Shown: positions 35,989 to 46,512 of the stretch, one piece after another
Layout: the number at the start of each line of letters is the position of its first letter
How positions within the stretch are numbered: the stretch's first letter is position 1
NCBI GenBank assembly: GCA_016927755.1
Contig: JAFGLZ010000104.1
Coordinates: 1,737-65,736, forward strand
Source of the DNA: Phycisphaerae bacterium
Lineage (GTDB): Bacteria > Planctomycetota > Phycisphaerae > UBA1845 > JAFGLZ01
Length of the DNA: 64,000 nucleotides
Reading direction: 5' to 3'
Position numbers and translations under genes: made by a program
Notes under the pieces: model-generated
The model's input: the letters and a program-made list of their open reading frames with translations, nothing else
Databases searched by the model: none
What the model was told of the DNA's origin: nothing

Positions 35989-36016
35989 CCCTAGACCCTG
36001 AACCCTAGACCCTGTT
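35989..36016 (+). repeat. CCCTANN heptamer array (C-rich arm, inverted copy of 35884..35918)
   Basis: CCCTAga CCCTgaa CCCTAga CCCTgtt with exact 7-nt period. It is the reverse complement of the NNTAGGG family and ends 22 nt before the E2-E3 ATG. Confidence 0.8.
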
Positions 36017-36038
36017 GTTCTCCATGAGGAAGTCCGCA

Positions 36039-38738
36039 ATGGCATACCCGATCACTGTTCCCCGTCTGGGCTGGGAAATGGAAGAGGCCGTCTTCGTCGA
36101 GTGGCTCAAGAAGGAGGGCGAGCCGGTCAAGGAGGGCGAGCCGCTTTTCGTCCTGGAAGGCGACAAGGCGGTTCAAGAGGTGGAGGCAATCGACAGCGGC
36201 ATCCTTCGGATCCCGCCCGACGCTCCGAACCCGGGCGACACGGTCGTCGTCGGCGCCATTCTGGGCTATCTCGTGGAACCGGGCGAGGAAGCGCCGCTCG
36301 AGACATCAGGAGCAGCCGTGGCCCCCAACACCCGGCCGACCTCGGCGGGCTCGCCCGCGCCTGCATCGCCGACAATCGCTCCGTCCGTCGCCACTGAGCC
36401 CCTACGCGCAATCTCCGCAACGACCCGCCGCGGGCCGACCATCAGCCCCCGAGCCGCGCGACTCGCCGCCGAGCTCGGCGTCGAGTGGTCGCGTCTCCAC
36501 GGCACCGGCAAGACCGGACGCATTCGCGAGCGGGATGTCCGCGCGGCCGCTGCCACGGCGACGAAGGTCGCGCCCGCCGCGGGACCCGCCGGACTCGCCC
36601 CCGACCTGGCCTTCTCGGGTCGCGCGATACCCGTCGGCCCGGTCCGAAGACGAATCGCCGACCGCATGGCCGCCAGCGCCCACACGACGGCTCCCGTCAC
36701 GCTGACGACCACCGCCGACGTGACCCGCCTCGTCGCCCTCCGCGCTCAACTCAAGGGCGAGCAGCGAGCCGACGACGAGCCCGTCCCCAGCTACACCGAC
36801 ATGATCGTCAAGTTGACCGCCGCGACGCTCGGCGATCACCCGATGCTCAACGCCCGCTGGGCCGACGACAAGATCGTCCTGCCCGACGGAGTCCACGTCG
36901 GCGTCGCCGTCGACACCGACGCCGGGCTGCTCGTGCCCGTCGTCCGCGACACCCCCGGGCTGAGCCTGCGCCAGCTCGCGGTCCGGTCGCGCGATCTGAT
37001 CGATCGCGCCCGAAGGCGCCGCCTAGCGCCCGACGAGATGCAGGGCGGCACGTTCACCGTCAGCAACCTGGGCTCGTTCGGCGTCGAGGCCTTCACGCCG
37101 ATCATCAACCTGCCGGAGTGCGCCATCCTCGGCCTGGGGCGCATCCGCCGCGAGCCCGTCCTCGTCGACGATCGCGTCGAGCCCCGCGACACGATGGCGC
37201 TCAGCCTTACGTTCGATCACCGCGTCGTCGACGGCGGACCGGCCGCTCGCTTCCTCGACGCCGTCCGCTCCGCGATCGAACAGCCGGACCTCCTCGAGGA
37301 GGACGAGTCGGACGCCGCCGCCGCGCCGGCCTCTCAGAGTCACGCCATTGCCGCGTCGACCGAGCCACGCGAAGCGGTCATCATCGGCGCCGGCCCCGGC
37401 GGATACGTCGCCGCCCTCCGCATCGCCGCGATGGGCGGCAAGGCGACGCTCATCGAACGAAGCTGCGTCGGCGGCGTCTGTCTCAACACGGGCTGCATCC
37501 CCACCAAGGCCATGCTGCATGTGGCCAAGCTGTACTCCGACTTGAAGACCGCCGCGTCCGTGGGCATCGAGGCCGGCGACGTCCGCCTCGACTTCGCCAA
37601 GGTCGTCGCCCACAAGGACAAGGTCGTCGCCGGGTTGACCAAGGGGCTGGGCGCGCTGCTCAAGGGACGAAACGTCAACGTGGTCGCCGGCCGGGGACGA
37701 TTGATCGAGCCGCACACGGTTGGCGTCGATTCGCCCGACGGCGTCCTGCGGATCCCCGCGCCGAACGTCATTCTGGCCACCGGCACGATCCCGGCGCCTC
37801 TGCCCGGCCTCGATATCGACGGGGAGCGGATCCTCAACACCGATCAGGCGCTGGCCATGCAAGCGCTGCCCGAATCGGCGCTGATCATCGGCGCGGGCCC
37901 CAACGGGGTGGAGTTCGCCACGATGCTGGCCGAGTTCGGCAGCAGCGTCACCCTCGTCGAGGCGATGGACCGCGTCCTGCCCACGGTCGACGCCGACGCG
38001 GCGAAGGAAGTGGCCAAGTCGCTCAAGAAACGCCGCGTCACCGTCCACTGCGGCACGAAGGTCGACGGCGTCAACCGGCGCGACGACGGTTTGGCGATCC
38101 GGCTCGACAACGGCCAGACGGTCGAGGCGGCGATCGTGATCGTCGCGATCGGCCGTCGCACGCGGATTGACGACCTCGGCCTCGACGAGGCAGGGGTTCG
38201 CCACGACGGGCGGTTCATCCAGATCGACGAGCGATGCGCCACCACCGCCCCCGGCGTCTACGCCATCGGCGACATCACCGGCAAGGGCCCATACGCCCAC
38301 GTTGCCTATCGCCAGGGCACCGTGGCCGCGAGCAATATCATGGGCGTGGCGATGACCGAGGACTACCGGGTCGTGCCGACGGTCGTGTTCTCGCACCCGG
38401 AACTGGCGCAGGTGGGTCTCGGCGAGGACGCCGCCCGCGCGGCCGGAGTAGAGATCGAGACGGGCCGGTTCCGCTATCAGGCCAGCGGCGCCGCCCAGGC
38501 CTTCGGTCAACCCGAGGGGTTCTGTAAACTGGTAGCGGAGGCCGGTTCGAGGCGCGTTCTCGGGGCGACGATGGTCGGCTTCCGCGCCGCGGAGGTCATC
38601 CATGAGGTGGCCGTCGCGATCCGCGCCGGCATGACCGTCGGCGAGATCGCCGAGACGATTCACGCGCACCCGTCGCTGGCTGAGCCGGTGGTCGAGGCCG
38701 CCGACGCGCTATTGGGGATGCCGCTGCACTCGCTATGA
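36039..38738 (+). CDS. Fused dihydrolipoamide acyltransferase (E2) and dihydrolipoyl dehydrogenase (E3)
   Basis: Lipoyl domain with LEGDKAV. E3-binding domain PRAARLAAELGVEWSRLHGTGKTGRIRERDV. E2 catalytic domain with LTFDHRVVDGG. Linker EEDESDAAAAPASQSHAIAASTEPRE. Then a complete E3 (IIGAGPGGYVAA, redox disulfide CLNTGCIPTK, IIGAGPNGVEF, HAHPSLAE). No stop between the two parts. ATG at 36039 with GAGGAAG upstream. Confidence 0.85.
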   Translation: MAYPITVPRLGWEMEEAVFVEWLKKEGEPVKEGEPLFVLEGDKAVQEVEAIDSGILRIPPDAPNPGDTVVVGAILGYLVEPGEEAPLETSGAAVAPNTRPTSAGSPAPASPTIAPSVATEPLRAISATTRRGPTISPRAARLAAELGVEWSRLHGTGKTGRIRERDVRAAAATATKVAPAAGPAGLAPDLAFSGRAIPVGPVRRRIADRMAASAHTTAPVTLTTTADVTRLVALRAQLKGEQRADDEPVPSYTDMIVKLTAATLGDHPMLNARWADDKIVLPDGVHVGVAVDTDAGLLVPVVRDTPGLSLRQLAVRSRDLIDRARRRRLAPDEMQGGTFTVSNLGSFGVEAFTPIINLPECAILGLGRIRREPVLVDDRVEPRDTMALSLTFDHRVVDGGPAARFLDAVRSAIEQPDLLEEDESDAAAAPASQSHAIAASTEPREAVIIGAGPGGYVAALRIAAMGGKATLIERSCVGGVCLNTGCIPTKAMLHVAKLYSDLKTAASVGIEAGDVRLDFAKVVAHKDKVVAGLTKGLGALLKGRNVNVVAGRGRLIEPHTVGVDSPDGVLRIPAPNVILATGTIPAPLPGLDIDGERILNTDQALAMQALPESALIIGAGPNGVEFATMLAEFGSSVTLVEAMDRVLPTVDADAAKEVAKSLKKRRVTVHCGTKVDGVNRRDDGLAIRLDNGQTVEAAIVIVAIGRRTRIDDLGLDEAGVRHDGRFIQIDERCATTAPGVYAIGDITGKGPYAHVAYRQGTVAASNIMGVAMTEDYRVVPTVVFSHPELAQVGLGEDAARAAGVEIETGRFRYQASGAAQAFGQPEGFCKLVAEAGSRRVLGATMVGFRAAEVIHEVAVAIRAGMTVGEIAETIHAHPSLAEPVVEAADALLGMPLHSL

Positions 38739-39697
38739 GCAAGACGACCGGACAAGACGACCGCGCCGCGGACCTCGAGCCTTCGCCCGCGCCGACCGAT
38801 CGACCCGGGCGGCGGCTACCGCCGTGGCTGAAGAAGCGTCTGCCGGCCGGCAAGACGCTCGCCGAGACGACGCGCTCGGTTCGATCAGCCGGTCTGGCGA
38901 CCGTGTGCGAGGCGGCTCGATGCCCCAATCACGCCGAGTGCTGGTCGCGCCGCGTCGTGACGTTCATGATCATGGGGCGGCATTGCACTCGGCGCTGCGC
39001 GTTCTGCGCCGTGGACCACGGGGCGCCGGGGCCCTTGGATCCGGACGAGCCGCGTCGCGTGGCCGAGGCCGCCGCGGAGCTAGGCGTGCGGCACGTCGTG
39101 GTCACGTCGGTGACGCGGGACGACCTGTCGGACGAGGGCGCGGGCGCGTTCGCCCGGACGGTCGAAGCGCTCAGAGCCCGCCTCGATAGCGTCACCGTCG
39201 AGGTGTTGCCGCCCGACATGCACGCCCGCATCGACTGCATCGACCGCGTGTGCGCGGCCGGGCCCGCCGTGTTCAATCACAATCTAGAGACGGTCGCGTC
39301 GCTGGCGCCTCGGATCCGGCCGCAGGCCGACTACGCCCGATCGCTCGAGGTCCTGCGAATCGTCAAGCGCCGCCACCCGGACATCGTGACTAAGACCGGA
39401 TTGATGGTGGGCCTCGGTGAGACGGTTGACGAGATCCACGCCGCGCTGGCCGACGCCCGAGCCGCCGGCTGCGACGTCGTCACCATCGGCCAGTACCTCC
39501 AACCCACGCGCACGCACCTGCCCGTCGTCCGGTACTACCGGCCCGAGGAATTCGACGCCCTGGCCGATCGGGCCCGGGATCTGGGTTTCGCCTCCGTGAT
39601 GTCCGGTCCGTTCGTTCGGTCGAGCTATCGGGCTGGTGAGGCGATGGTTGACGCCCAATGCGTCGGAGGGGCCGGATCAACGAGCGTTCGAGAGTAG
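38735..39697 (+). CDS. lipA: Lipoyl synthase
   Basis: CEAARCPNHAECW, radical-SAM CTRRCAFC, and GLMVGLGET. Its start overlaps the E2-E3 stop (ATGA). Confidence 0.95.
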   Translation: MSKTTGQDDRAADLEPSPAPTDRPGRRLPPWLKKRLPAGKTLAETTRSVRSAGLATVCEAARCPNHAECWSRRVVTFMIMGRHCTRRCAFCAVDHGAPGPLDPDEPRRVAEAAAELGVRHVVVTSVTRDDLSDEGAGAFARTVEALRARLDSVTVEVLPPDMHARIDCIDRVCAAGPAVFNHNLETVASLAPRIRPQADYARSLEVLRIVKRRHPDIVTKTGLMVGLGETVDEIHAALADARAAGCDVVTIGQYLQPTRTHLPVVRYYRPEEFDALADRARDLGFASVMSGPFVRSSYRAGEAMVDAQCVGGAGSTSVRE

Positions 39698-40117
39698 AGC
39701 AGGGACGCCCCATTCCCACATCTCACGAACGTCAAGAGGCATGCGCCATGCCACTTCCAATAGGGGTCGAACGGCACATTCCTTTCCGGGGGTGCGAGCA
39801 GGTGACGGGGGACTAGAAAGCGCGACGGCGAATCCGTGAACGATCTCTTGACCTCACGGCCCAAGCATCCACCGCGAGCCCGATCAGGCAGGCGAGGAAA
39901 CCGCTGACGCTGAGGGAGGAGGCACCACTTCAGGTCTCAGTCCCCCGGGAACATCCCCACGCGCAAGAACGCTGCCAACAGCGGATAGTCCGGAAGCCGG
40001 CGAGCGACTATGCAACCTGCTCCAAGGGTCGCGGCCGCTCACATGTCATCCAAGGCAAGGCGACTCAACGCCGATCCAGGAAGAGCTAACGGTGTCCCGT
40101 CCCCGCCCGTTGCGTTT

Positions 40118-40975
40118 CTACCCGGTATTCTTCTTCCGGGGCCTTCGGGGAGTGGGTCGCCGCTTCTCGAAGTCCTGCTTTGCACGATAGATCGAATCCA
40201 CAAGCCTCGTGCACGCGGAGGTTATGCGGGCCAGAACCTTCAGCTGCTCTCTGCAAGCCGTGCTCTTCGTAGGCTTCGGATAATCGACCGTGTGCGACAC
40301 CTCGCCCCACAGCTCATCCGCAAGCGTCCGTACCTGCAGCTCGCATCGTACCCGGCTCGCGGTGCTGAGTTCAATGACGTAGTGAACACTACTGTACATC
40401 GTGTCACGAAGTTGCGTCTTGATCCCACGCTCCCTGAAATACTGTTCGCTCTCATGATCCCAGATGTGCGCAACCGGCCCCTCCACTAGCTTGTACTTCT
40501 GCTCCCGAAGTATTTCAAGGATGAGTCCGTTCATGTTGGCTATTTGATCCGTGTACAGATGAAGAATCCGAATACCGGCCAGGTCCGTAATCCTCTCAAA
40601 GAGATTCGGTACATTAGTTGCCGGCTTCCGCCCAGCCCTCTTCTCCTCAACTGCGCCTCTTTGGAGCTTGTCCCGAAGATGTCGCGGGTCCTTCACACGG
40701 TGTTTTATGAAGTGAATGTACTTCCTAAGTTCCGGATGGCTAGTGCACGCTGACATCACTGCCTCAGCCGCGATCTGAAAGAGGTGCATGTTGTCCCGAA
40801 AGTGCTTCACGCACTTCTCGATGCCCTTCTTTTCAGCACTGGTGAGAGTGATGTTGACGACCGATTTCCTTCGCCGTGGGTTGCGCATGGGTGCTTCATC
40901 AGCCTCTCGACTGCGCGACAATAGCTTTCGCAATGCTTCTGAACGCATGCAATGCCTGGGTCTTGTGGCTTTCAT
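40118..40975 (-). CDS. Stand-alone RelA/SpoT-domain nucleotide pyrophosphokinase (small alarmone synthetase / toxSAS-like)
   Basis: Synthetase motifs in order: HRVKDPRHLRDKL, DLAGIRILHLYTDQI, YSSVHYVIEL, ELQVRTLADELWGEVSH. No HD hydrolase domain. The start is uncertain: the ORF-track ATG at 40975 overlaps the ParA-like gene by 77 nt, and an alternative ATG at 40888 lies 10 nt after that gene's stop. Low GC. Confidence 0.8.
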   Translation of the reverse strand: MKATRPRHCMRSEALRKLLSRSREADEAPMRNPRRRKSVVNITLTSAEKKGIEKCVKHFRDNMHLFQIAAEAVMSACTSHPELRKYIHFIKHRVKDPRHLRDKLQRGAVEEKRAGRKPATNVPNLFERITDLAGIRILHLYTDQIANMNGLILEILREQKYKLVEGPVAHIWDHESEQYFRERGIKTQLRDTMYSSVHYVIELSTASRVRCELQVRTLADELWGEVSHTVDYPKPTKSTACREQLKVLARITSACTRLVDSIYRAKQDFEKRRPTPRRPRKKNTG

Positions 40976-41903
40976 TACCTCCTTCTACGCGTGAGATGGG
41001 GACCCCCTGCAGCTGTGCTCTTTGCGCCGTCGTCGAGAAGTCCTTCACTTGCCCAAGACGACGTTCTGACCCGGTTCCCTGGGCAAGCGGCGGCCTTAGC
41101 TCTTTTAACACCGCAATCACATCCGCATAGATTCTCTTCTCCACGCGACGGAAGAAGCCTGCTGGGACGCTGGCCATTGCCTGTCCGTAGGTCTTGAAGC
41201 GCTGCGGAATGTGGCCCATGAAGTGCGGCTTTCCTCGCAGCAAATACACGCCGTCCGGCGCCAGTGCCTCTATGGTAGCCCAATCGAGAACCCATCGCTT
41301 AAGCGTCTGACCCAGCGTGCTTAGGGCGCGAGTGGAAAAAAGGTCGCAGGCAACCGGCACAATGAAGAAGTCGGAGTCAAGTATGAGGACGCGATTCAGT
41401 GGGCCAATGTTGGGCCCCGCATCGTAGAATACGAAGTCATAGGCTTCCTGGCTATGCCGCGCGATATCTTCCACAAGTGCGCTGATGGCTGTAATTGCAC
41501 GGAAGCCACCGAGTTTTCGCTTGAAGCACGAAGTCCAGGAATCACCGAGCGACTCCTCGAATTGCGACAGGCGAATGTCGCCGGGCACCAGGTCAACATT
41601 GTCGATTGAAGTAGGCAGAGGATCGAGGTGTGCGACCTCTCCGATTTCCTCGTAGACGTTCCTTATCGCTGTCCAAACAGTCTGCCCTTCCGGATCTCCC
41701 GAGTGGTCAAGCAGGTCATCCACGACGTCGTCGGAGAGAAGATAGGAGGTCAGATTGCATTGGGGGTCGGTATCAACAAGGAGAACGTGCTTGCCTTGCT
41801 CACCCAGCGCCGCAGCAATGTTGACGGTCAGCGTTGTCTTGCCGACCCCGCCCTTATGGTTGAAGATTGTCAGCCGGAGCGGCCTGGAAGTCACGTGTGA
41901 CAC
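40899..41903 (-). CDS. ParA/MinD-superfamily P-loop ATPase (deviant Walker A)
   Basis: LTIFNHKGGVGKTTLTVNIAAAL, LLVDTDPQCNLT, Walker B FVFYDAGPNIGPL, DFFIVPVACDLFS. GTG start at 41903, 6 nt after the upstream gene's stop. Confidence 0.85.
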   Translation of the reverse strand: MSHVTSRPLRLTIFNHKGGVGKTTLTVNIAAALGEQGKHVLLVDTDPQCNLTSYLLSDDVVDDLLDHSGDPEGQTVWTAIRNVYEEIGEVAHLDPLPTSIDNVDLVPGDIRLSQFEESLGDSWTSCFKRKLGGFRAITAISALVEDIARHSQEAYDFVFYDAGPNIGPLNRVLILDSDFFIVPVACDLFSTRALSTLGQTLKRWVLDWATIEALAPDGVYLLRGKPHFMGHIPQRFKTYGQAMASVPAGFFRRVEKRIYADVIAVLKELRPPLAQGTGSERRLGQVKDFSTTAQRAQLQGVPISRVEGGNESHKTQALHAFRSIAKAIVAQSRG

Positions 41904-41909
41904 CTCCGG

Positions 41910-42497
41910 TTACTTGCTAGTAACGGTCTTTCCTTTAGCTGGCGACTTCTTCCGGGTGCGGCGCGGCCGAGAGTGACGCAGGAGTGACTTGGCCGCATCC
42001 CGGTCAGGCAAGGCGTCAACGAATCGCTCACCGATAGCGCTGATTTGCTTTCTGCCCTTGCCTGCAGATGCAAGCAACCCAGCATTGGTGGCGTTCACGA
42101 CAGCATAGGCGGGATTTGAGAACTTCAGTTGCGCTGCTTCTGTGTTCAACTTGCTGATATCGAGTGTCTTGAAATACGGGGCATTGTGGTAGTGGGATAG
42201 GTAGTAGGCCAGGCACGCCACGCGCTCGATGTCTGTCTGGGGCTGTTTCTCATGGAGGAACTCCTTGGGAGATAGGGTCGCCCGATCCGCGAAAGTCATC
42301 TCTCGAGTGTTAGGTTGGCTACTCAGGACAGCACGCGGCACGCCTGCAACTCGTGTTGGCTCCCGGCGAGGATCTAGGTCATATATCTCTGAGACATACT
42401 TCAGAATGCGCCCGCGCGCTTCTGGGCCCACCCGGGCGAGTGCATCTTTGACCGTGCGTAGTACCTCTACCTCGTCGACGGCGCCTTCTTCATTCAT
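41910..42497 (-). CDS. Hypothetical protein with a Lys/Arg-rich C-terminal tail, first gene of the ParA-like/RelA-SpoT operon
   Basis: 195 aa from the ATG at 42497 (MNEEGAVDEV...), with GGGAGAAGG upstream. The ORF-track GTG at 42563 lacks a well-spaced RBS. I recognise no motif. The C-terminal tail is RHSRPRRTRKKSPAKGKTVTSK. Confidence 0.6.
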   Translation of the reverse strand: MNEEGAVDEVEVLRTVKDALARVGPEARGRILKYVSEIYDLDPRREPTRVAGVPRAVLSSQPNTREMTFADRATLSPKEFLHEKQPQTDIERVACLAYYLSHYHNAPYFKTLDISKLNTEAAQLKFSNPAYAVVNATNAGLLASAGKGRKQISAIGERFVDALPDRDAAKSLLRHSRPRRTRKKSPAKGKTVTSK

Positions 42498-43033
42498 CAC
42501 CTTCTCCCGAGTCTTGATGCCCTCTCCGCCGAATACCGCAATCGCGATGTCGCCATGATACACTCAACGGTGCCAAGCCCCTCCTGGACGGTTCCGTCAT
42601 TCGGACGACGCCAGTGAGGTCGCCTGTTGGCGTCCGCTGTGTAGCGACAACAAAGCGGTCGCAATCGGGCGTGACGTTGTTTCGCGGATAGGACGTAGAC
42701 GCAATGCATCTCTACGGGCTCCTGAAACGCGTACCCGCGATTATAGCATGGGGGCATCCTGGGACAACCCTGCCGCGATCCAGGAAGGGGCTCAGGAGAA
42801 CACTGTTGGGAGGGTAAAGGTGAGAGGAGAAATGGGGGCAGGCCTTCTCGCGTGAAGTGCCAGAGGGCGCGGACGCTCGACTTCGATTTCAGCGGGCCGC
42901 CCTGCACCGAAAGAGGGGGCAGGCTTGCTTGTCGGAACGCCGCCCTACTCAGCACGCCAGGAGTAGCGCAGGCTCGATTCCAATGTCAGGGCGACTCCCC
43001 CCGCCCCGGGCCCGGGGGCAATAAGCGTCTTCG

Positions 43034-43666
43034 TCACGGCTTGCGCTTTGGTCGATAGTCGTTCTGGTCGATGCAGCCGTCGTAGAGGGCGCGGTTGATC
43101 TTGACCCAGTGGGTGTTGTTGATTCCGCGCGTGTTTGTGTAGGTCGGACTCACGGGGAATGCGCAGGCGATCTTGATCCATCGATCCTGCGCCATCGAGA
43201 CGCTCTTGACCTCGTCGGCGGCCTCGGAGAGGTCCTGGTCCTGGCTGAAGATCAGGGCCACGTCGTACACCCCTTCCCGCGCCATTCGCACGACGTCGAG
43301 CGCGATGCGGATGTCGATGCCCTTTTCCTGTCCAACCAGAACGGTGGTGGCCTGACCGTTCGGCAGGCGGACTGTCTGATTCCGGTACTTCAAAGGGCGA
43401 GAGAACGTGGTGACCCCCCGCGTGCCCATGAGGGCCAGCTTGGCCGTCCAGAAATGGTTCCAGAACGGGTTGTCCGTCGCATTCGGAACGCCGGTGTAGA
43501 ATCGAGTCGCCGTGGCACTCCACCCCTTGGCTCGGCAGGCCGCCTCGACCAGAGCGAGGGCGTTGTAGTTGGGATAGCCATACCCGAACGCCCGCTTGAC
43601 CGCATAGAACAGGTTCTGCCCATCGATGAAGGCAATCGTACGCTTGACGGTGGGCTCAGCGGGCAT
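43034..43666 (-). CDS. NYN-domain (LabA/DUF88-like, PIN-related) putative ribonuclease
   Basis: TIAFIDGQNLFYAVKRAFG ... GQEKGIDIRIALDVV ... YDVALIFSQDQDLSEA is the characteristic NYN acidic-residue pattern. 210 aa with no additional domain. Confidence 0.75.
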   Translation of the reverse strand: MPAEPTVKRTIAFIDGQNLFYAVKRAFGYGYPNYNALALVEAACRAKGWSATATRFYTGVPNATDNPFWNHFWTAKLALMGTRGVTTFSRPLKYRNQTVRLPNGQATTVLVGQEKGIDIRIALDVVRMAREGVYDVALIFSQDQDLSEAADEVKSVSMAQDRWIKIACAFPVSPTYTNTRGINNTHWVKINRALYDGCIDQNDYRPKRKP

Positions 43667-43698
43667 CGAGCGCCCCCTTGCCCACTTGGGTGTGCCCC

Positions 43699-43745
43699 AA
43701 AAAAGCAGTACCCCGCCGGAGGCCTTTCGGCTGATCCGACGGGGT
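43699..43745 (-). terminator. Putative intrinsic terminator (minus strand)
   Basis: The minus-strand RNA reads ACCCCGUCGGA-(14-nt loop with an inner GCC/GGC pair)-UCCGGCGGGGU acugc UUUUUU. An 11-bp stem with one mismatch, then a U6 run 5 nt after the stem. Lies upstream of the NYN gene start. Confidence 0.5.
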
Positions 43746-44163
43746 GTAGATCAATACCAAATTATCGACCACGTTTCGGCCCTTGTCAAATGACTTGCCG
43801 GGATCCGCGACTGGAACGCGAGACCGCAACTTAGGCTCTCCGAGCGGATTGCGTTCATGAGCGACTATGATAACCCCATGTTCGGCATGGGGAAAGAGGC
43901 ACGAGAAGCAGAGCCTGCTCTGTTGCGGTGCGGGGCTTGGCGCTGATTTCAGGGGATCGGCTGGTCATCTCAAATTGCCTCGAATCAATAACTTACATCC
44001 CTGCCCCTTTCCCACGCGCCTGCCATGGCGGGACTCGATTTCACTCTCCAACGCCTGGACCCTACGCCACATCGACAGGGTCAGTTGATGGGCCCCGAAA
44101 CTCGAGACGTCGACGATGAATGTGCCGAGAGCTTTGGGAGGCGAGTGGGTTCACGGGGCGCTC

Positions 44164-46512
44164 TCAGCGCTGGACCACTTCGAATGGGATGGCCGGTATG
44201 ACGCCGAGGGAGACGCGTCTCTTTTGCTTGGCGCCTTTGCCGCCTCGCTGTCCGCCGGGCATTTCGGTGAAGACCTCGACGATCAGGTTGTCCGACAGGC
44301 CGACCTTTGTTGCCTTCTCGTCGGCCTTTAGGGCGAACGCCAGGCCCTCGGGCACGACCTTCACGTCCTGGAGGCTCATGCCGTCGGGCGGGTCGTTGAG
44401 TTCGAGCTGGACGTTGCGGAGCATGGGATGCTTCGGCGCCCGGATCCGCACTTGGGTCGCCCCGCCCTGGGGGACCCGAATCGGGCCGCTACCGGCCAGC
44501 TCGACGGGCGGGCCTCGGCGCCCTTGGCCCCTGACGACGACCATGAGCTCTTGCGACGGCACCAAGTGCCGGTAGAGAAATGCCTGCATCATGTCTTCCG
44601 CCGGGACGACGGGCCGGCTGATGGTCGTGCCGCCGACGCGAGCCCGGCCCTCGAGATTCAGGACGATCGGCTCGTCGGACCCGCGCCAGGGCGCCGCGAG
44701 CGTCATGCGGACGCGGTCGCGCCCGCTGGGAATCTGGCCGCCGCTCAGCTTGAAGCCGGAGGGCGCGTCCTTGAGGACCACGTCGATGTCGCCGTTGAAC
44801 CCGTCCTTCCGAAACGCGTAGACGCAGATGGCAGCGGCACGACCGGCGGGAACGCTGATGCTCGACGGCGTCATGCGGAGCTCGAAGTCGGGCCGTGGAG
44901 GTCCGATGCGGAGGCGATAGGCGTACGTCTTGCCGCCGTGGCGCTGTGAATCGGCCAGGCGCACGTAGTAGGTTCCATCCGCCGGCAGCCGGAAGCGGCA
45001 GTAGGAATCGGCGTGGTGCGTGAGCAGGCCCGAGGCCTTGTCCTCCTGGTCGTCGTTCCATGCCAGCACGCGTCCCGACGCATCGGTCAACTGCAGCAGG
45101 GAATCGAGCGGGGACCCGAGCCTTCGAGCGAGCACCTCGGCCACCACTTCGTCGCCGCCACGGCCGTCGAACCGGAACACGTCGACGTCGCCGGGCTTGT
45201 CGATGCGGCCGTTGACGACGCGCGGCAGGTCGACGCGCTGCGCCTTCTGCGTCGTGTCGTCGGGTTCGGCTTCGTCGCATTCGGGAAGCCTTTCGACGGC
45301 GTAGGTGACGGGGTTGGAGAGCCATTTGTCCTGGCGCAGCGCCGTTTCTCGGATGCGGTCGCCGCCGGGTTGGGTTCTCAGGGTCACCTGGTCTCGGGCG
45401 AGGTTCCAGCCCTCGACGGAGGCGACGGCCTTGCTGCCCGTGCGCGCGCCCAACGGGAACGCCTGCGTGATGAAGGGTTGCTCGCCCACGGCGATTCGGT
45501 AGACGAAGTCCTCGCGACCTCGATAGATGGCGTCGCGGATCTCGAGCTCGAACACGCCGTCCGAGGGGATCTTGTAGAAGAGGACCGGGTCGGGGTCGAA
45601 GCGGTAGTCGTCCTCGAACGCCACCTCGTTGCCGGCGGCGTCGTAGAGGGCCAGTGTCGCCTGGAACCAGCCGGGGACTGCGTCGGCCAGATACGGAACG
45701 AGCCGTCGGGCGTAGGCCTCGATCACGAGCCGCTGTCCGGCCTTGGCCCGGAAGCGGAACCGATCGACGTCACCGGGTTTGATCTGCCCGTTCAGCAGCA
45801 CGGGCAGGTCGACCGGCGGATCGGGCGGTCGTTGTGAGTATGCCTTGGGATCGTTGCTCTCGAGCTCGCGGGTTTCCGGCATCGCTCCCACCTGGAAGCA
45901 CATGGGGTTCGTCAGACCGGCGCGGGTCAGCAGCCGGAGCTCCCTGTCGCCAAGCGCTGCGCCGGGATCGATCGTGACCTTGACCACCACCGTCTCGGCG
46001 ATCTGGGCGTTCTGCTGGCGCTTCTTGATGTTGAGGAGCTCGTGCCTGAGATGCTCGAGTTCCCTGAGACTCATGTCATCGATGTCGCGGAGCAGCGGGT
46101 GGTTGGGCAGGTTGGCGGTGTCGGCCTTGTTCGTGCTGGGCTTGCTTGCGCGCCGCCGGACAAACCGATTCCTGGGTCCGGCCGGTCCTTTGCCCTTTTC
46201 GGACGCCTCGGCCAGGCGTTTGTCCCGGACCTCCTTCATCTTTCTCTGGAGGGCGTCGCGCTGTTCCTTGTCGATGTTCTTGAGGGGCCTGTAGTGCTGG
46301 ATGATCGAGGCGTGAACGCCCTTGCCCGAAACGTATGCGTCGGTGACCCCCTGGAGGAACTGGCCGCCGACCCAGATCTCGAACGTAGCGCCTCGCTGTC
46401 CCCCGGCGGGGTAGATGTAGCCGATGTGCGGCTCCCTGCTGTTCGACTGGCCCCACGCGGTCGATGCGCACAAGGCCGCCGCCAGAAGCATCAGTCGTGG
46501 GCGTACTGTCAT
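44164..46512 (-). CDS. Secreted protein with two bacterial pre-peptidase C-terminal (PPC)-like domains
   Basis: Signal peptide MTVRPRLMLLAAALCASTAWG. Two blocks of E(S/P)NDxxxxAxxVxLPxxxNGxIxxPGDVDxFRFxxxxGxxxVxEVxARRLxSPLDSxL type. Start trimmed to the ATG at 46512 (GAGGA upstream), 17 nt after the DUF1501 stop. Confidence 0.7.
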   Translation of the reverse strand: MTVRPRLMLLAAALCASTAWGQSNSREPHIGYIYPAGGQRGATFEIWVGGQFLQGVTDAYVSGKGVHASIIQHYRPLKNIDKEQRDALQRKMKEVRDKRLAEASEKGKGPAGPRNRFVRRRASKPSTNKADTANLPNHPLLRDIDDMSLRELEHLRHELLNIKKRQQNAQIAETVVVKVTIDPGAALGDRELRLLTRAGLTNPMCFQVGAMPETRELESNDPKAYSQRPPDPPVDLPVLLNGQIKPGDVDRFRFRAKAGQRLVIEAYARRLVPYLADAVPGWFQATLALYDAAGNEVAFEDDYRFDPDPVLFYKIPSDGVFELEIRDAIYRGREDFVYRIAVGEQPFITQAFPLGARTGSKAVASVEGWNLARDQVTLRTQPGGDRIRETALRQDKWLSNPVTYAVERLPECDEAEPDDTTQKAQRVDLPRVVNGRIDKPGDVDVFRFDGRGGDEVVAEVLARRLGSPLDSLLQLTDASGRVLAWNDDQEDKASGLLTHHADSYCRFRLPADGTYYVRLADSQRHGGKTYAYRLRIGPPRPDFELRMTPSSISVPAGRAAAICVYAFRKDGFNGDIDVVLKDAPSGFKLSGGQIPSGRDRVRMTLAAPWRGSDEPIVLNLEGRARVGGTTISRPVVPAEDMMQAFLYRHLVPSQELMVVVRGQGRRGPPVELAGSGPIRVPQGGATQVRIRAPKHPMLRNVQLELNDPPDGMSLQDVKVVPEGLAFALKADEKATKVGLSDNLIVEVFTEMPGGQRGGKGAKQKRRVSLGVIPAIPFEVVQR

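Follow-up and report, generated by a model that had tools for sequence, protein, structure and literature searches.

Why would a ParA-type ATPase be encoded between a protein without recognisable motifs and a single-domain alarmone synthetase? This question is raised by three genes, here termed g1, g2 and g3, which lie in tandem and tightly spaced on the minus strand of the window, a 64,000-nucleotide (nt) stretch of contig JAFGLZ010000104.1 from a Phycisphaerae bacterium (Planctomycetota). An earlier reading of the sequence, hereafter the original prediction, had described them as an operon and a candidate undescribed defence or addiction module. Our answer, to which we assign a probability of roughly 55%, is that the trio is a conflict or abortive-infection cassette in which the ATPase g2 controls the synthetase g3. 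The three genes are arranged as follows.

41910-42497, minus strand: g1, 195 amino acids (aa) from an ATG start preceded by the Shine-Dalgarno-like sequence GGGAGAAGG; the C-terminal end of the protein is RHSRPRRTRKKSPAKGKTVTSK.

40899-41903, minus strand: g2, a ParA/MinD-type deviant-Walker-A ATPase of 334 aa (331 aa in the database gene call).

40118-40888, minus strand: g3, a single-domain RelA/SpoT synthetase of 256 aa, that is, a small alarmone synthetase (SAS).

Gene layout, gaps, the alternative g3 start and the g2 motifs quoted in the original prediction all matched what we found. In the window, g1 and g2 are separated by 6 nt, and 10 nt lie between the g2 stop codon and the 256-aa form of g3. 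An alternative g3 start at 40975, 77 nt inside g2, would extend the protein to 285 aa; the 256-aa form is the probable one, being favoured by homologues and by the database gene call. For g1, a GTG start would give an open reading frame (ORF) of 217 aa, and its homologues measure about 195 aa.

The profile of the g3 family was scanned against 185,579 genomes (one per species), yielding 202 confirmed relatives, of which the best 80, with 42-62% identity to g3, were taken together with their flanks. A tblastn search placed a g2 homologue directly upstream of g3 in all 80 loci and a g1 homologue upstream of g2 in 75, the other five being contig-cut or decayed, and all-against-all ORF clustering of the 80 loci returned only g1, g2 and g3 as recurrent genes. 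The junctions are equally uniform, with a median gap of 2 nt at both, gaps of at most 30 nt in 62 of 65 (g1-g2) and 60 of 61 cases (g2-g3), and overlaps in nearly half. Moreover, when each of the three proteins is compared pairwise across loci, the identities co-vary (r = 0.70-0.78, a level reached in 0 of 500 Mantel permutations), which fits inheritance as a block, with shared host ancestry adding to the correlation. A gene order that recurs in 80 independent genomes is far beyond chance, and the trio is one conserved, co-inherited and tightly coupled operon across many phyla. The original prediction had named as a refutation that the three genes do not co-occur elsewhere; because the trio is a conserved, co-inherited unit, this objection falls away.

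Two apparent extensions of the operon were rejected. Further recurrent ORF clusters, considered as a possible fourth conserved gene, were antisense shadows of g1-g3 or came from one group of related genomes, and a protein that seemed to fuse g1 and g2 (P0366) looks like a frameshifted, contig-cut read-through. Two of the loci are decayed copies. In one (L005, 4284-7947), g2 is split by IS4-like and IS1595-like insertion sequence (IS) elements and g3 is broken too. In the other (L042, 6405-8041), repeats and a BrnT/BrnA-like pair replace g1 and most of g2; the g3 frame is still open without g2, but its invariant K62 has become R and the promoter may be lost.

The 80 loci include members of the Planctomycetota, Acidobacteriota, Pseudomonadota, Nitrospirota, Chloroflexota, Verrucomicrobiota, Bacteroidota, Bacillota and Actinomycetota, among others, and source annotations of family members read only 'hypothetical', 'cellulose biosynthesis protein BcsQ', 'ParA family', 'AAA family ATPase' or 'GTP pyrophosphokinase'. 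The nearest relative of the window trio, with 67-77% identity in all three proteins, is inserted on the opposite strand between phage major capsid and portal genes, which is the classic moron position, and the surrounding prophage-like region also encodes head-tail joining, cement and tail proteins and a large terminase. Among viral contigs, one carries the full trio, and one relative resides on a Caballeronia megaplasmid. Other trios stand alone among housekeeping genes (glutaminyl-tRNA synthetase, ispG, molybdopterin oxidoreductase), once beside a DDE transposase. Within the window, the GC content is 0.556-0.606 across 40-44 kb and 0.64-0.70 on either side, in agreement with the low-GC setting reported originally. 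Given its varied flanks and its low GC relative to the host, the trio is a horizontally mobile cassette. A scan of 125 immediate trio neighbours returned a mix of housekeeping genes together with some strong defence or mobility matches, namely type I S subunits, a type III methylase, HNH enzymes, AbiEii, PDC-S01, PDC-S13, HEC-01A and integrases.

A simpler relative of the cassette was found on seven viral contigs, where a gene for a ParA-like protein of 366-368 aa (29-35% identity to g2) precedes a RelA/SpoT gene coding for about 225-230 aa (37-42% identity to g3, the L086 copy being fragmented) and g1 is missing. These pairs have 36-40% GC inside elements of 46-55% GC and occupy recurrent positions: they directly adjoin the P2 portal gene gpQ in L088 and L089, directly adjoin a P4-type integrase in L087, and lie between P2 gpV and gpS in L083-L085. 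Seven of 5426 complete E. coli genomes carry the pair, annotated as 'ParA family protein' and 'RelA/SpoT domain-containing protein', in a P2-like prophage with the replication endonuclease/DinI genes on one side and the portal gene on the other, i.e. in the gpA-gpQ interval. The P2 gpA-gpQ and P4 psu-int intervals are hotspots rich in validated anti-phage systems, and the former houses old and tin (Rousset et al. 2022, PMC9122126). Prophage carriage and the P2/P4 hotspot location of its relatives point to a conflict role for the trio and thus back this part of the original prediction. One E. coli copy (L093, strain CFSAN061762, 5512-6653) has, beside the ParA-RelA/SpoT pair in the same P2 hotspot, two divergently oriented genes for a 'ComF family protein' and a hypothetical protein. 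Rousset et al. 2022 (PMC9122126) list this arrangement in their Table S5A, and the additional two genes may represent a second system or an accessory.

The two-gene form is itself listed as system 110 in Table S5B of Rousset et al. 2022 (PMC9122126), with 29 occurrences, an empty notes column and no comment in the main text; the 'putative plasmid partitioning system' which those authors mention for a quarter of P2-like phages is not this pair but Plasmid_stab_B / StbA. System 110 consists, like g2 and g3, of a ParA-like ATPase followed by a single-domain RelA/SpoT protein, which are homologous to g2 (~30%, E = 2e-29) and g3 (~40%, E = 4e-46); its two genes overlap or abut and have a foreign, low GC content. 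It differs in having two genes without g1 and a longer ATPase of 367 aa. Since a form made of g2 and g3 exists without it, g1 is to be regarded as accessory and not as core. The three-gene system proposed originally stands as a conserved trio, with g1 dispensable in the related two-gene form.

How much of this is new was assessed by comparison with defence models and the literature. In a scan with PADLOC-DB 2.0 (2023), g2 matched PDC-M28B over the Walker A region alone (residues 6-46) and g3 matched PDC-S33 at E = 0.013. A literature search, outside whose scope most subscription papers lay, returned no paper linking a ParA-type ATPase to a SAS. The partner set is therefore unfamiliar, as originally stated, in so far as neither a PADLOC model nor a paper found has a ParA-type partner for a SAS; it is not unrecorded, as the g2-g3 core is already catalogued, uncommented, as system 110, and it is the three-gene form with g1 that is undescribed.

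The ATPase g2 matches the Pfam families AAA_31 (1.3e-29) and CbiA (2e-17) and carries the motifs NHKGGVGKTT, DTDPQCNLT and FVFYDAGP, with the signature Lys, the Walker A' Asp and the Walker B Asp all present; across 75 family members, the conservation of KGGVGKTT, DxDPQ and the Walker B Asp is 98% or higher. Among solved structures, the nearest to g2 is PDB 3PG5, an 'uncharacterized protein' (E = 2.1e-38), followed by Soj (5e-15), and g2 lies nearer to 3PG5 than to Soj, ParF or SopA. The proteins g2 and 3PG5 share an insertion with a conserved Trp (D-S-W), and sequence comparison places g2 in a distinct ParA/MinD clade, that of 3PG5. Scores against the NCBIfam partition families are all far under the cut-offs, with 67.5 bits for ParA_partition (cut-off 180), 57 for RepA (348) and 36 for SopA (725). 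When g2 is aligned with B. subtilis Soj, a conserved Lys occupies the place of Arg189, the residue of Soj for non-specific DNA binding, and this alignment serves as a lead only. The family comprises at least 3039 clusters at E ≤ 1e-30 in a protein collection clustered at 90% identity.

A ParA-like protein of 368 aa was also noticed in two P22-like phages, Salmonella phage ST160 (L090, NC_014900.1, 3509-5062) and SE1. It is similar to the g2-like ATPase found in two-gene cassettes (26% identity across 94% of that ATPase) and is encoded in the c2-to-gp24 slot of the immunity region, preceded by a DUF3024 protein and without a RelA/SpoT gene. Proteins of the g2 type may thus serve other prophage accessory modules.

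For g3, the sole Pfam match is RelA_SpoT (PF04607; 56.4 bits, cut-off 27, E = 4.3e-15), with no HD hydrolase, TGS or ACT domain, which agrees with the original description of a complete set of synthetase motifs without a hydrolase domain. Eleven residues (K62, R64, K66, K74, D102, Y165, H169, E183, Q185, R187 and H199) are invariant in 64 homologues, and the first ten of them align with the synthetase motifs of RelP, i.e. the RxKxxxSxxxK-type ATP site, the Mg-binding Asp, the G-loop Tyr and ExQxRT. The AlphaFold2 (AF2) model has a predicted local distance difference test score (pLDDT) of 93.7 and consists of one domain with terminal helices. When the g3 profile was compared with PDB sequences, RelP/RelQ-type enzymes alone matched (~1e-8), and CapRel, FaRel2 and Tas1 gave no match even at E ≤ 10. 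Foldseek likewise ranked RelP/RelQ first (5e-10, TM-score ~0.7 on target), followed by an exported Streptomyces SAS, CapRel (1.5e-6) and long Rel (~1e-4). The match to RelP/RelQ structures (PDB 6FGJ, 6EWZ, 5DED, 6FGK) is full-length and includes the N-terminal helices and the long C-terminal helix. However, identity amounts to only 17-22%, and RelP/RelQ are stand-alone housekeeping genes of Bacillota without a ParA or winged-helix partner, whereas g3 has basic tails and is mobile.

The g3 family is basic, with a median isoelectric point (pI) of 9.4, a net charge of +21 for the window copy, Lys/Arg-rich N- and C-termini, and K/R at positions 2-4 in 49 of the 64 homologues. By analogy, the likeness to RelP/RelQ favours a nucleotide as acceptor, and the basic surface keeps a nucleic-acid target in view as a possibility. 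The family counts 2390 clusters in the 90%-identity collection, and the text of the Atkinson and Jimmy papers on RelA/SpoT homologues (RSH) does not describe this group. A distant g3 relative with a different architecture and context was seen on B. anthracis plasmid pXO1 (L092, NC_007322.2, 4866-5915) and on related B. cereus plasmids: a RelA/SpoT-domain protein of 350 aa with about 31% identity to g3, which adjoins xerS and has no ParA-like neighbour.

No match to g1 was obtained in scans of Pfam, PADLOC, NCBIfam and PHROGs, which bears out the initial failure to recognise a motif in it. Its homologues form 2013 clusters in the 90%-identity collection, all unnamed, without Pfam domains and about 195 aa long, and its profile retrieved 1529 cluster representatives at E ≤ 0.001 (399 at ≤ 1e-30) from 1.84 billion representative proteins, nearly all of them stand-alone proteins of about 190-210 aa. 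The AF2 model, built with 35 homologues, has a mean pLDDT of 78.7, exceeding 90 over residues 80-170, and is divided into a two-helix hairpin (4-39), a disordered linker (48-71), a helical domain with a beta-hairpin wing (77-176) and a tail. Foldseek searches of the PDB and of viral models returned winged-helix DNA-binding domains as top matches, including the winged-helix domain of MCM8, a PhiH1 repressor-like protein, MarR proteins and Rok, with probabilities of 0.9-0.99 and E-values of only ~0.1. The modelled C-terminal domain thus likely belongs to the winged-helix fold class, and because the E-values are weak we assign a fold class and no specific family. The best-conserved stretch of the protein, S-K-L-N-T-E-A-A-Q-x-K-F-S-N, sits in this domain. 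The tail carries the motif R-x-R-R-x-R-K-K, with R177 and R180 at least 90% conserved and a median of 10 K/R among the last 25 residues; the core is neutral (median pI 6.7) whereas the last 22 residues have a pI of 12.

Two further g1-like arrangements were recorded. Just downstream of one trio (L049, 9714-11024, plus strand) lies another g1-like gene, a divergent one of 179 aa (29% identity) with the same layout and a basic tail, followed by an unknown 255-aa protein without a Pfam or PADLOC match, and a ParA gene is absent there. From this second copy and about 1100 distant g1 relatives, the sequences suggest that g1-like proteins may pair with other partners. In addition, a 304-aa protein from the representative search (P0290) has a divergent g1-like module N-terminal to a canonical g1 winged-helix domain and basic tail, that is, a tandem duplication of the module.

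Which known system does the trio resemble? In working, it is most like PANGU and the toxic SAS enzymes (toxSAS); by descent, g3 is nearest to RelP/RelQ and g2 to the uncharacterised 3PG5. PANGU type I pairs the nucleoid-associated protein Pag1A with the GRel toxSAS Pag1B; by itself neither of the two is toxic, and the synthetase, once switched on by its partner, makes pppGpp, which ends in abortive infection (preprint 10.64898/2026.04.06.716658). In both systems a DNA-associated, non-enzymatic partner (predicted as such for g1) is encoded upstream of a SAS effector, and PANGU offers what we consider the best working analogy. Compared by description, PANGU is nevertheless bicistronic and lacks an ATPase, whereas the trio has three genes and a two-gene form without the putative DNA-binding protein. 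The PANGU effector has an acidic DNA-mimic domain, while g3 is basic and has no extra domain; and where PANGU senses through a nucleoid-associated protein, the trio places a ParA-type ATPase between the putative DNA-binding protein and the effector.

The toxSAS groups FaRel, FaRel2, PhRel, PhRel2 and CapRel (Jimmy et al. 2020, PMC7229694), along with the fused CapRel(SJ46), are partnered by small antitoxins, SAH hydrolases or a fused domain, and never by an ATPase. Like them, g3 is an RSH with one domain and no hydrolase, encoded on mobile elements within a conserved operon of two or three genes that often overlap; unlike them, it has an ATPase partner, and its profile and fold lie nearer to RelP/RelQ than to CapRel. 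With ATP, ParA/MinD ATPases form dimers; they attach to DNA or membrane and rely on partners whose short positively charged peptides stimulate hydrolysis (PMC13170346). ParABS, MinDE and PomXYZ share with the trio a deviant Walker A ATPase; their partner proteins carry a short positive peptide, for which the tail of g1 is a candidate counterpart, and the ParABS partner also binds DNA. They differ in that the gene order of the trio is reversed, no centromere repeat is present, and an enzyme effector is obligately linked. Taken together, we rate the trio as a probable conflict system built on a SAS, whose controller would be of a new class.

The mechanism that we propose for such a cassette starts from an ATP-bound g2 dimer which would hold g3 inactive or sequestered, probably on DNA in the manner of ParA proteins. 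The protein g1 would bind DNA by its winged helix and its positive tail would tune the g2 ATPase cycle, comparable to the peptides of ParB, MinE and PomX. A disturbance caused by a phage, with foreign or damaged DNA or a phage protein hitting g2 or g1 as candidates, would shift the nucleotide or DNA-bound state of g2, whereupon g3 would be released or licensed. The synthetase would then move pyrophosphate from ATP to a purine nucleotide, most likely forming (p)ppGpp or (pp)pApp, and less likely to the 3' end of tRNA; growth would stop and the infection would abort. We infer that g2 is an obligate controller of g3, which may either restrain or activate the synthetase. The g3 frame that stays open without g2 in L042 leans to licensing, tempered by the K62R exchange. 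A precedent exists in PANGU, where a DNA-bound sensor licenses a SAS effector without being an antitoxin (10.64898/2026.04.06.716658). The strong conservation of catalytic residues in both g2 and g3 supports a conflict cassette governed by the ATPase.

Several observations weigh against this reading. The hotspots of the two-gene relative hold non-defence cargo too (PMC9122126), and enrichment of defence genes in the flanks of the trio is modest, qualitative and at most suggestive, the neighbours being mostly ordinary housekeeping genes. No model in PADLOC-DB 2.0 covers the trio, and the E. coli-type pair likewise obtains Walker-A-level matches only. In g1 the positive peptide lies at the C-terminus, and the ATPase-activating peptides described so far are located at or near the N-terminus (PMC13170346). 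Upstream of g1, k-mer and palindrome searches of 75 loci found no shared operator or centromere motif or palindrome; recurrent GC-rich k-mers came from a few closely related genomes. Within the proposed mechanism, both the trigger and the product of g3 are guesses. Finally, g3 is nearest to RelP/RelQ, which are non-toxin enzymes. Because these and not the validated toxSAS groups are its closest relatives, the toxSAS identity suggested for g3 in the original prediction is only inferred, although the conserved, tight operon with a partner does fit it.

Among the alternatives, a tripartite toxin-antitoxin (TA) or addiction module survives best, and we still regard it as unlikely. Here, g3 would be the toxin, g2 a neutralising protein antitoxin and g1 an autorepressor, and the module would stabilise its carrier element without dedicated phage sensing. 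The tight, often overlapping operon with the putative toxin gene last would suit this explanation, as would the solitary position of the cassette among housekeeping genes, which resembles many TA loci, and the predicted winged-helix fold of g1, which is found in many TA regulators. SAS enzymes can halt growth via alarmone synthesis or tRNA modification, and conserved two- or three-gene SAS operons foretold toxicity in Jimmy et al. 2020 (PMC7229694). The decayed copies speak on both sides, as the g3 of L005 is broken along with its IS-split g2, whereas the g3 frame of L042 is intact after the loss of g2, a state that a lethal toxin would not allow, but one qualified by K62R and a perhaps lost promoter. 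A 334-aa ATPase with invariant catalytic motifs is, moreover, unlike a passive antitoxin, and the 75 loci share no palindromic operator upstream of g1 for an autorepressor. Roles in TA and in abortive infection are not mutually exclusive and can coexist.

We judge it improbable that the trio is a physiological regulator, in which an accessory alarmone synthetase would be tied to the nucleoid or cell-cycle state via the ParA-like ATPase and would impose dormancy under stress for hosts or lysogenic prophages. The full-length resemblance of g3 to RelP/RelQ, terminal helices included, and the many copies among housekeeping genes are compatible with such a function, and ParA/MinD proteins normally position or time cellular processes (PMC13170346). 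However, its spread is patchy, with about 200 confirmed relatives in 185,579 species genomes, and it combines foreign composition with carriage in prophages and hotspots and with decay by IS elements and deletions; these features therefore characterise a dispensable mobile accessory. The idea of an ordinary type I partition pair, with g1 as centromere-binding protein, g2 as ParA and the SAS gene as passenger, draws on the ParA-family membership of g2 and its match to phrog_164 'ParA-like partition protein', on the predicted DNA-binding fold and positive tail of g1 and on the Caballeronia megaplasmid copy, but it is very improbable and, in line with the original prediction, we set it aside, since g1 precedes g2 where parA would precede parB, the search for repeat arrays and centromere-like sites found none, no replication gene is conserved nearby, the copies are mostly chromosomal beside housekeeping genes with the SAS gene always present, the two-gene form lacks the DNA-binding partner and lies in integrated P2 prophages, and g2 stays far below the ParA_partition cut-off.

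Further features around the trio in the window are given below.

42740-42767, minus strand: promoter-like site from a consensus scan (TTGTCC, 16 nt, TG-TATAAT), about 240 nt upstream of the g1 start.

43034-43666, minus strand: NYN-domain protein (PF01936 at 8e-8), adjoining the trio.

43761-43789: strong promoter-like site of the NYN gene (TTGACA, 17 nt, GATAAT).

The site at 42740-42767 matches the consensus at 10 of 12 positions and has an extended -10 element. It is a weak candidate for the operon promoter because the scan of the region gave 3 sites where 1.5 are expected. Between it and the g1 start codon lies a leader of about 240 nt (42498-42739, minus strand) without annotated function. 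The NYN protein had been drawn into the system by the original prediction as an adjacent RNase. We ruled it out as a fourth component, as 0 of 80 related loci carry an NYN gene and it has a promoter-like site of its own. It is probably a separate single-gene candidate within the same low-GC stretch, and it matches the PADLOC candidate defence family HEC-09 at 2.8e-11.

Housekeeping genes border the low-GC stretch: one flank encodes lipoyl synthase and a fused E2-E3 2-oxoacid dehydrogenase component, the opposite flank a protein with a PPC domain and a DUF1501 protein. Island boundary marks (tRNA genes, integrases, flanking direct repeats) sought around it were not found, nor were repeat arrays in the window at 39600-44200. 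The E2-E3 fusion is unusual in that one 907-aa ORF (36015-38738, plus strand) comprises a complete E2 acyltransferase with lipoyl, E3-binding and catalytic domains and a complete E3 dihydrolipoyl dehydrogenase; lipoyl synthase follows with a 4-nt overlap.

Returning to the conflict cassette, we tentatively propose, as a doubtful but far-reaching extension, that the trio and its two-gene relative form a new class of immune sensor, in which the ATP- and DNA-dependent cycle of a ParA/MinD protein would keep watch on cellular DNA, for instance on the integrity of the nucleoid or the entry of foreign DNA, and directly activate a RelQ-like synthetase. If true, this would be the first ParA-family switch acting as sensor and licensing factor of an immune effector, and, after PANGU, a second independent route by which the status of DNA leads to abortive infection through alarmones. 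Known SAS controllers are antitoxins, hydrolases, fused sensor domains and, recently, a nucleoid protein, to which an obligate ParA/MinD-type partner would add an energy-dependent switch. The E. coli relative in the P2 hotspot makes the hypothesis directly testable in a standard host and with standard phages. For the Planctomycetota, an older survey reported no RSH genes in the single Planctomycetes genome sampled (PMC3153485), and if this absence holds for the present host, an unopposed synthetase would be especially consequential. The ParA family, in turn, would gain a role beyond positioning and segregation.

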